A DNA stretch of 18,189 bases from the NCBI GenBank assembly GCA_030615175.1, contig JAUWZX010000001.1:263840-282028 (forward strand), read 5' to 3'. Made by a program: the position numbers. Positions 15,001-18,000 of this stretch are shown piece after piece; the first letter of the stretch is position 1; every line of letters begins with the position of its first letter. The DNA comes from Candidatus Parvarchaeota archaeon (GTDB lineage Archaea; Nanobdellota; Nanobdellia; WJKC01).

Positions 15001-18000
15001 TTTAATAAACTTAAAATACTTTAATTATACTATGGGGTTCTTTGACAGATTTAAAAAGAAAAAGAAAAAAAAAGGAAGAAAAAGTAAAAGAAGTGTTGGA
15101 ACACAAAAAACAATTCAAAAAAAGAGGGAAAAAATTGTTGAACCAAGTAGCGTCTTGCTAAAAGAGTGGACTCAGATAATTAAAAAAGTTGAAAACCACC
15201 CTTTATCCCAGGCAAGATTGATAAACACAAAAATTCTGGAGCAGTTAACAGAGATTTTGACAAGCATGGACCAAAAACTTGAAAGTTTAAAGAAATTAGA
15301 TGAAATAATTAGCCTGCTTAGCAGGGAAAGGGAGGAATTAGAGCAGGCTGGGATGCCTACAGAATCACTGGATGCTGCTATTGCAAAGCTTAAAGGCTTA
15401 AGCACCAAAGACAAAGAAGCGGTTGATGTGTTAAAAAAACACAAGTCAATTACAACTGAACAGTTTGCAAAGAAGGTTGGATTAAGCAGGTCAACTGCAT
15501 CAAGCAGATTAAACAAACTGCACAGCCTTGGGCTGCTTAAAAAAATGACAAAAGAGAGGAGAATAATATTTAAAATGGATAAAAACTTTTAAGCAAAGAT
15601 TAAATCATTTATAACAATATCTTTTAAGCAAAGACAGTATTTTTATGTTCAAAAACACGCCCTAAAAGGGCATAATTAACACAAAAAGTTAGGTTATTTG
15701 TGAACACAAAATCAGACATTTTTGTATACGTATTCCTTTGCTATACTTTTTGTATAATAGGGATTTGTATTATTTTGTCCAACAAAAGCAGTCATTTGGA
15801 ATATATTACTTGAAGTGTAATAACTCCACCTTGTGTAAGGTAAGCTTGCTTATGCGTGTCAAACATGTAAAAACATATGTTTTAAGCCGTTTTTCCGGAG
15901 TGTTCCTTTTTTTCGGAAAAATGTGTTCAAATTGCCTAAATTTCAGGGTCAATAAAATCGATAAAATTTTATGGACAAAACCATACATATTGCAAACTGC
16001 TTAGACTTCAATTATTTCGTCAAGCATTTTTAGCATTATTTGCTTTTCGTGTTTGCTTATTAACTGTTTTTCTATTGCTTTGGCAAATAGCGTTGGCATG
16101 AATTCGTACTTGTGCAGTTTGGTGCCAATATCTGTTCTTTTAATCAGCCCTAAGCGCTGCCATTGCTTGATTATCTCATATGAGCGGCTGCTCTTTAATG
16201 GCAGGTCCGTTGTTGCGAATTTCTTATTAAATACTCTAATGATGAAGTTCATGTGCTTGCTTAATTCTTTATACTCATTGCACAGCCATTTAGTGATTAG
16301 TAATTGGTATATCAGTTTTTCGTTGCTTTTCTCAAAATCCTTTTTAATTACTCTTTCTTCCTTGCTTAATTCCATATTAATATTATTACTATAAACTTTT
16401 TTAAGTATTTACTTATTCTAATAATCATTAATGGCTGAGGTTCCTGAAATCGTTTCTGAAGGTGATGAGGGTGGGGATGTTGTTTTCACTCCTTCTGATT
16501 ACGGCGGGTCCGAGACTTTAGAGCATGCTGATAAAGTAAATGCCCCTGTTCCTGATGAGAATAAGCCTGCTGAAGAGCCCGGGTCATGGCTTGAGAATAA
16601 GAAAACAGCTTTAATAATTGGTGTTATTGGTTTTATAGTAGTAATTATTGTATTTGTATTCTTATTCGGCACTATTGACTGGGATTTAATAATGAATCCT
16701 CCAATGAATTCTTAAAGAATTTCATGCAGGGGACGAGCCCAATACAAAGTGTTAATTGAGTGATCTAGTCACTTTATTTCTTTTAGCACTTCATTAATAT
16801 CTTTTTTTCGTTTAATTGATGGATGGAAATAAAACATGCATTTAGTGTTATGTTCCCCAATTGCATAAATTAATGGTCTTTGAAACAAGATATTAGATAA
16901 AATTGCAGCCCCTAACTCCGCGTGCAATCCCTTACCATAATCATTACCAATTATTATGAATACATCGCAGTCCTTAAGTCCATTAATATCCTCACTAGCA
17001 TATTGCTTTGCAAGTTCTTGATTCTCTTTATACGGCTTTATAGCTTTATGTAAAGTCCAATCAACAGTAATTTCATGACCCTTACTTTTTAACAAGTCAT
17101 ATAACTTTCTAACTTCCTGCTTGCTCTCAAACTTAGCTGCAACATAGAACTTCATGATAAGAATACAAGAATCAACTAATATAAAAAATGTGCGGGGGAC
17201 GAGATTTTCTAAACCCCAAGCGTTTTTCCGTGAACGCTTTTTCTAAAAGGGTTCTTTGAACTCGCGCAGGCACTAAGCCACTGGATTCTTAGTCCAGCCC
17301 GTTTGACCAGACTCCGGCACCCCCGCAATGAGTAATTAAGATATTAACTTAGTATTTTAAAGTTTTTCTTACGCTGCTCATAACTATGCTTTTAAAATAG
17401 CATTTGTACCTCTTTAGTCCAATACTTTTCTTCAGGATTCTTCCCTGCTTGCAGAGTAATTTTTCTATTGCTTCATCAATTGTTTCAGCGTTTACTTCAG
17501 TTATTAATTGACCTATTTCTTCATAGTAATGAGCATCACTGCCCCCTATTAATGGGAGCTTATACTTTTCTGAGAATTTTAGTACTTTGTTATTAAAGTT
17601 CTTGAGCAGGCACCTGCCGTTTAATTCAATGAAGTCAAAATTTCTTAACTCAAAAACGTGTTTTTTAACGCCCCTCCTGAACGGGTCAAAAACGTGTGGC
17701 AGTATCACTATCCCCCCCATCGCTTTTATTAAGTTAATTGTTTTCTGAGCGTCAAGTCCTGGCTTGATTGGTTCCTTAATGAATAATCCGATTATTTCTC
17801 CCTGCTTTGCCCTGATTTCCTCTCCTATTATGACTTTAAAGTTTCTGTCATTATATTTTAATAATTTATCATGATTAACTAGTGCTATAGCATCTAATCC
17901 TTTTTTCCTAGCAATTTTCACTGCTAGTTTTGGCTTGATTGCAGCGCATGGTGATAAATTAGTATGTACGTGAAAGTCTATTTTCATAAGAATCTTTATT

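Follow-up and report, generated by a model that had tools for sequence, protein, structure and literature searches.

Results

The tRNA-Leu(AAG) gene

The window, the whole stretch of DNA that was analysed, comprises 18,189 nucleotides of contig JAUWZX010000001.1 from a Candidatus Parvarchaeota archaeon. The genome under study (G000) is an assembly that is 87% complete; G001 belongs to the same genus, and G000–G003 form one family. On the minus strand, positions 17326–17191 hold a class II tRNA gene that we confirmed as real. Exon 1 (17255–17326) encodes the 5′ strand of the acceptor stem, the D-arm, the anticodon arm, a long variable arm and the T-arm up to position 59. It is followed by a 50-nt intron at position 59/60 of the T-loop (17205–17254) and by exon 2 (17191–17204), which contains the end of the T-arm, the 3′ strand of the acceptor stem and the discriminator A73, with CCA incompletely encoded. 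The anticodon AAG (17288–17290, minus strand, A34 at 17290) lies in a 7-nt loop with A at position 37, and the same anticodon is found in G001 and in a contig of run X2. The upstream neighbour encodes a PHP-family protein (17349–17987, minus strand), which lies outside the finding, and the downstream neighbour is a 128-aa open reading frame (16769–17155, minus strand) without a Pfam match at E ≤ 1e-5.

The unspliced gene was not called by ARAGORN, relaxed thresholds gave output that was mostly noise, and Rfam scored just the 5′ part, at 24.9 bits with a cut-off of 29. On the intron-less sequence ARAGORN called tRNA-Leu(aag). The acceptor stem (7/7) and the anticodon stem (5/5) are fully paired and the variable arm is long; A73 and the cloverleaf, NAG anticodon and 7-nt loop of an archaeal class II tRNA-Leu are also present. 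This confirms the preliminary description of a minus-strand tRNA-Leu(AAG) with a 50-nt T-loop intron and a regular class II form after splicing. The description had also stated that AAG is kept within the genus, and indeed G001 has Leu-AAG at 96% identity and all four genomes of the family have AAG without a GAG match. The intron is flanked by a relaxed bulge-helix-bulge (BHB) with 3/4 central and 4/5 outer pairs. A splicing endonuclease is encoded in the genome, and PF01974 is present in 5/5 genomes tested. The element has the features of an archaeal BHB tRNA intron at 59/60, and its cleavage is predicted. The same intron position has been reported in ARMAN-2 (PMC3239211).

Base 37 (17287) is A in this gene, and G in G001 and in 109/120 related genes among the matches listed. 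The Leu-CAG gene of the genome (contig C5, 673040–673183) apparently also has A37. Loss of Trm5 as the cause of A37 was rejected, as Trm5/Tyw2-family matches are present in the genome. A frame-shifted reading of the loop as TAA, an anticodon absent from the Leu genes of the assembly, was rejected by inspection, since the stem pairs only with AAG centred. A contig of run X2, which may be the source sample, covers 17259–18171 with three differences, none at the anticodon. An X4 contig covers the anticodon region with six differences; four are placed elsewhere, and the positions of the other two are not given. The AAG anticodon is not an assembly error.

The Leu tRNA genes found in the genome are AAG, TAG, CAG and CAA, and neither Leu-GAG nor Leu-TAA was found in the 87% complete assembly. 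Its tRNA set is therefore incomplete, and the absence of GAG alone proves little. An intron-tolerant finder recovered seven tRNA genes, which is not a full inventory.

Introns and neighbouring features

Related introns interrupt seven tRNA genes of the genome at T-loop position 59/60 (window 17205–17254; contig C5 290419–290560, 532017–532153, 69541–69691, 641163–641299, 698982–699215 and 73790–73922). Those of Leu-AAG and tRNA-Ile(TAT) (C5 290419–290560) are identical, and the latter gene has two introns. This relatedness suggests recent intron copying. Similar sequence occurs at the canonical intron site of both tRNA-Pro(TGG) genes, two near-identical copies 5.6 kb apart (C5 583367 and 588952) that are possibly an integration-site duplication. 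The core hairpin of the intron was also seen outside tRNA genes (C5 360898, 605455, 70305 and 540764; C1 58236). Three of these copies lie between direct repeats (39, 19 and 12 bases), and the 12-base repeat duplicates the 5′ end of tRNA-Val(CAC). The hairpin may be a small mobile element and the seed of tRNA introns. In G001 the 59/60 site of Leu-AAG (L002) holds another intron, which by eye looks like the one in the anticodon loop of Ser-TGA in the genome under study (C5 698982–699215). TiaS (PF08489) was not found in 5/5 genomes tested, as reported for ARMAN. Elsewhere in the window, positions 5629–8205 (plus strand) contain a two-gene unit (open reading frames of 192/198 aa and 232/253 aa) in tandem duplicate.

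Distribution of Leu-AAG and Leu-GAG

A pattern of D-arm plus anticodon was searched in 401 genomes of the class, each at least 85% complete. The AAG pattern matched 161/401 genomes, and 144 of these matches were judged tRNA-Leu, for the most part from a visual reading confined to the 5′ half, with 17 dropped as chance. For GAG the pattern was stricter by one letter and matched 119/401, of which four were dropped as chance, leaving 115. Seven genomes matched both patterns, each with a chance match on one side, and no genome with both Leu-AAG and Leu-GAG was found among these 401 incomplete assemblies. Re-searching 80 of the 142 blank genomes from the 3′ side added 12 AAG and 9 GAG. In total, at least 156/401 genomes have Leu-AAG and at least 124/401 have Leu-GAG; the AAG share by genome is inflated because 91 of these genomes belong to a single family. 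By a count of family codes, AAG occurs in 28 of 97 families and GAG in 51, and both states occur in six families and three genera.

A scan of GTDB contigs gave at least 120 Leu-AAG loci. Among the matches listed, the anticodon stem is fully paired (5/5) in 119/120 over 41 different stems, which indicates purifying selection, and ARAGORN calls aag in 112/120. The listed titles include Woesearchaeota, Pacearchaeota, Nanoarchaeota and Parvarchaeum acidophilus ARMAN-5 (L077), together with at least five Aenigmatarchaeota, at least two Iainarchaeum, at least one Micrarchaeota, at least one Thermoplasmata and at least two titled 'bacterium'. In the phylum of the genome that carries L056, 38/121 genomes matched, with 10 AAG (two already among the GTDB loci), 23 GAG and 5 chance matches. 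These comparative data are far stronger than the 29 genomes on which the preliminary description had based its claim of a functional Leu-AAG that replaces Leu-GAG without TadA/ADAT, and they uphold it.

A general A34 pattern matched 54/301 genomes, mostly by chance. The other A34 genes that look real are Pro-AGG in 10 genomes (including G002 and G003), Thr-AGT in eight and Ala-AGC in one; seven of them were read as whole genes. The A34 types arise separately, as Thr-AGT is found beside Leu-GAG in G005 and G024. An intron-containing tRNA in the window (12331–12437, minus strand) was called Asn(ATT) by ARAGORN; read by eye, the gene is a Phe(GAA) whose intron is non-canonical, and the A34 call is probably false.

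Shared gene position and switching

The AAG and GAG genes of sister genomes share neighbours (20 loci, 18 genes among the matches listed). At L281, for example, S11 and RpoD lie upstream and L18e and L13 downstream, and RpoD lies within 2.5 kb in 31/80 long named loci. The tRNA-Leu(AAG) gene in the window has moved out of this usual RpoD–L18e slot. In sister genomes, where the slot is shared, the AAG gene is orthologous with the Leu-GAG gene; for the relocated copy studied here the same is presumed.

On a FastTree tree of RpoA′ from 79 genomes (41 AAG and 38 GAG, picked to include mixed groups; G011 without a match), the G/A state changes at least 19 times. Two hundred shuffles on the same tree gave a mean of 26.7 changes and a minimum of 20. 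As this tree is unrooted, gain is not separable from reversal. The anticodon stems of sister AAG and GAG genes are not the same, so that transfer or conversion may explain some of the switches. In families f17, f42, f56 and f65 the RpoA′ open frames are about 1150–1200 aa, consistent with the fused A′/A″ RNA polymerase subunit that is typical of Pacearchaeota.

Two candidate drivers of switching were rejected. For AT drift as the sole driver, mean GC3 is 0.27 in AAG and 0.37 in GAG genomes, yet independent pairs showed no link (4.0 vs 2.7), and four AAG loci have GC3 of 0.66–0.78. Loss of Elp3 that relaxes the need for G34 was rejected as Elp3 is found in 46/50 AAG genomes (the genome under study included, the four GC-rich ones excluded) vs 18/30 GAG genomes; independent pairs gave 3.5 vs 0.1, which is not significant. 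Nine f17 genomes in which Elp3 was not found (G076, G089, G139, G212, G227, G260, G272, G302 and G392) hold all six GAG genes of f17; the eight of them on the tree form one clade and represent one event only.

Search for a deaminase

PF00383 was found in none of G000–G003. In the larger comparison it was present in 27/50 AAG and 21/30 GAG genomes. The 23 AAG genomes without it include the family under study as well as G019, G021, G036, G045, G118 and G136, which are 95–100% complete, and independent pairs showed no link between PF00383 and the AAG state (3.0 vs 4.3 of 13). Among 22 proteins scanned from the 30 best PF00383 loci, 14 resemble dCMP deaminases or their fusions. The other eight, six from AAG and two from GAG genomes, score best on the TadA model, at 50–99 bits with a cut-off of 150. 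A profile built from these eight DPANN TadA-like proteins recovered 34/34 control loci, including its own eight, and found nothing in the genome under study (best E 0.052). PF14437 found nothing in that genome either, and PF02137 gave nothing above cut-off in five genomes, the weak match in G002 reaching 15.7 bits (cut-off 27). The absence of a deaminase from this genome, as first described, was thus reproduced with PF00383, PF14437, PF02137 and the TadA-like profile. Neither TadA nor ADAT2/3 was found encoded in G000–G003, at 87% completeness in the case of G000. No TadA-fold deaminase tracks Leu-AAG.

Codon use

With our own ORF call the genome has 6165 CTT and 1348 CTC codons, a CUU/CUC ratio of 4.57, so the counts behind the 4.6-fold excess of CUU in the preliminary description were reproduced. 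As evidence for A34 decoding the excess does not stand, because other boxes of the same genome show equal or larger ratios: among the G34-read boxes GUU/GUC is 4.89 and GCU/GCC 3.32, and further boxes give AUU/AUC 4.65, ACU/ACC 5.27 and CCU/CCC 8.52.

In 37 AAG and 34 GAG genomes (8–40 kb each, G000 whole), regression on the pooled U/C bias showed that AAG adds 0.39 (s.e. 0.11) to ln(CUU/CUC), about 1.5-fold; the other 15 boxes all had |t| < 1.5. When 66 named loci were included as well (of 80, the 14 under 9 kb were left out), the effect was 0.34 (t 3.2). Sister contrasts went in the same direction in 5/7 and in the opposite direction in 2/7, and independent pairs gave 7.3 vs 1.0 of 13 (median p about 0.07). 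A slight shift from CUC to CUU where A34 is present is weakly shown by these data. Four GC-rich AAG loci use CUC heavily and more often than CUU (CUC 209 vs CUU 62 in L061, 205 vs 181 in L056), and their genomes have AAG, UAG and CAG without a GAG match, which speaks against decoding by plain A34. Since most AAG genomes retain Elp3, reading by UAG is likely to be restricted, and this tRNA cannot be counted on for CUC.

Discussion

Our data indicate that the locus carries the ordinary single-copy CUU/CUC-reading tRNA-Leu of archaea, with the wobble base probably changed from G to A. The gene would be transcribed, and the encoded endonuclease would cut the T-loop intron out at the relaxed BHB. 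LeuRS recognises its tRNA by the long variable arm and A73; as both are intact, charging with leucine is expected. Unmodified A34 would then read CUU well and CUC less well, and the UAG and CAG tRNAs would take CUA and CUG. Loose reading by A34 costs little, as every one of the four CUN codons stands for leucine, and this may be why the base flips repeatedly between G and A in DPANN. We consider it probable that unmodified A34 reads both CUU and CUC, and that the base switches between G and A without a new enzyme. Published tests cut both ways on this point. Unmodified A34 tRNAs of four-codon boxes mature in E. coli and replace the native ones (10.64898/2026.05.15.725136), and tRNA-Thr(AGU) of Mycoplasma reads ACU, ACC and ACG (PMC11066159). 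In the same literature, unmodified Leu-AAG variants in E. coli discriminate strongly for U over C (PMC11066159).

That last result might instead mean that A34 is otherwise modified, or that UAG superwobbles to CUC and AAG mainly serves CUU. Elp3 was not found in 4/50 AAG genomes, as superwobbling would allow, but it is kept in the genome under study and in AAG genomes at a higher proportion than in GAG genomes, and we regard this explanation as improbable. Conversion of A34 to inosine, which would yield the IAG form known from eukaryotes and lactic acid bacteria, deserves more weight, although we still think it unlikely. It would require a class-wide enzyme of a fold other than TadA/ADAT, perhaps the deaminase that acts on m1A57, which is described as still unidentified in archaea (PMC7912444); a TrmI-like gene is present in the genome under study. 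The strict one-for-one replacement of G34 resembles inosine-34 systems, abundant CUC codons are read in GC-rich AAG genomes that lack a GAG gene, and the class has Pro-AGG, Thr-AGT and Ala-AGC genes as well. Against this, the m1A57 enzyme is described as m1A-dependent (PMC7912444), TrmI-like genes were not found in 3/5 AAG genomes, Thr-AGT occurs with Leu-GAG in two genomes, and the codon shift goes toward CUU. An inosine-34 enzyme of DPANN unrelated to TadA/ADAT, which would be a third independent origin of wobble inosine, has the same small chance of being real. With such an enzyme, if it is real, G34 could give way to A34 across DPANN in the tRNAs for Leu, Pro, Thr and Ala.

Somewhat less likely again is a mixed state, in which A34 is unmodified in most lineages, including the one studied here, and becomes inosine where a TadA-like deaminase is carried. 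Six of the eight proteins that scored best on the TadA model come from AAG genomes, but all eight fall well short of the cut-off, two come from GAG genomes and none from G000–G003. For the genome under study a mixed state is inapplicable unless a deaminase gene sits in the missing 13%. An artefact, in which the sequence is wrong or the gene is a decayed copy and the true Leu-GAG lies unassembled, is largely refuted and hardly credible. The incomplete assembly, the missing Leu-TAA and the unusual A37 would speak for it, and the Ferroplasma case was itself flagged as a possible error (PMC2686519). All four genomes of the family nevertheless have AAG without a GAG match, a separately assembled contig has it too, and the stems of at least 120 GTDB loci show compensatory changes. 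Decoding by unmodified A34 is thus the reading that we prefer.

Reviews call ANN anticodons absent in archaea (PMC8007984, PMC11066159, PMC8879553), and recent papers place both A34 tRNAs and TadA/ADAT as absent from the domain (PMC8007984, PMC11066159). The rarity of unmodified A34 is called a paradox in recent papers, and a 2026 preprint gives three A34 cases in 10,517 archaeal tRNAs (10.64898/2026.05.15.725136). The statement in the preliminary description that ANN is 'almost unknown in Archaea' matches these reviews and missed the earlier reports from Ferroplasma and ARMAN-4/-5. Leu-AAG itself is already in print: it replaces GAG in Ferroplasma acidarmanus fer1 (PMC2686519, PMC6000648, PMC4810243) and was reported with Pro-AGG in ARMAN-4/-5 by Fujishima et al. 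in 2011 (PMC3239211). Its breadth was not found in print, and no DPANN-wide survey of Leu-AAG was found in open-access papers. Among the sampled genomes of one large archaeal class, the decoder of CUU/CUC has A34 no less often than G34, and many independent switches without a tracking deaminase break the no-A34 rule for DPANN. Whether plain A34 proves to decode on a large scale or a new inosine enzyme proves to exist, the answer would be informative. The value of the system lies in its scale and in the replicated switches, since replicated sister pairs make the cost of A34 testable.

The closest known cases are those of Parvarchaeum ARMAN-4/-5, in which A34 replaces G34 in the Leu box; their Pro-AGG, Ile-UAU and loss of TiaS recur here. 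That report covers two genomes and, in its available text, makes a side remark that likens the case to eukaryotic decoding, without a deaminase test, a survey or switching. In Ferroplasma acidarmanus fer1, G34 of the Leu-GAG gene likewise changed to A and GAG was lost, and an A34 gene without its G34 counterpart is also what we found in the genome under study, within incomplete assemblies. The available descriptions of Ferroplasma concern one species, in which the change was suspected to be an error of sequencing and had no codon effect; here the state is clade-wide and under purifying selection. Leu(AAG/IAG) of Lactobacillus, Lactococcus and Streptococcus is a stable replacement of GAG too, with Thr-AGT as the second common type (10.64898/2026.05.15.725136). 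TadA is encoded in most of those bacteria, and some of their species edit Leu-AAG, whereas no TadA above cut-off was found here. Mycoplasma tRNA-Thr(AGU) is the likeness for the decoding that we propose, in which a reduced genome uses an authentic A34 to read several of the codons in a four-codon box. In Mycoplasma this was shown by experiment, in another domain and for another amino acid (PMC11066159), whereas for the archaeal tRNA-Leu(AAG) we infer it.
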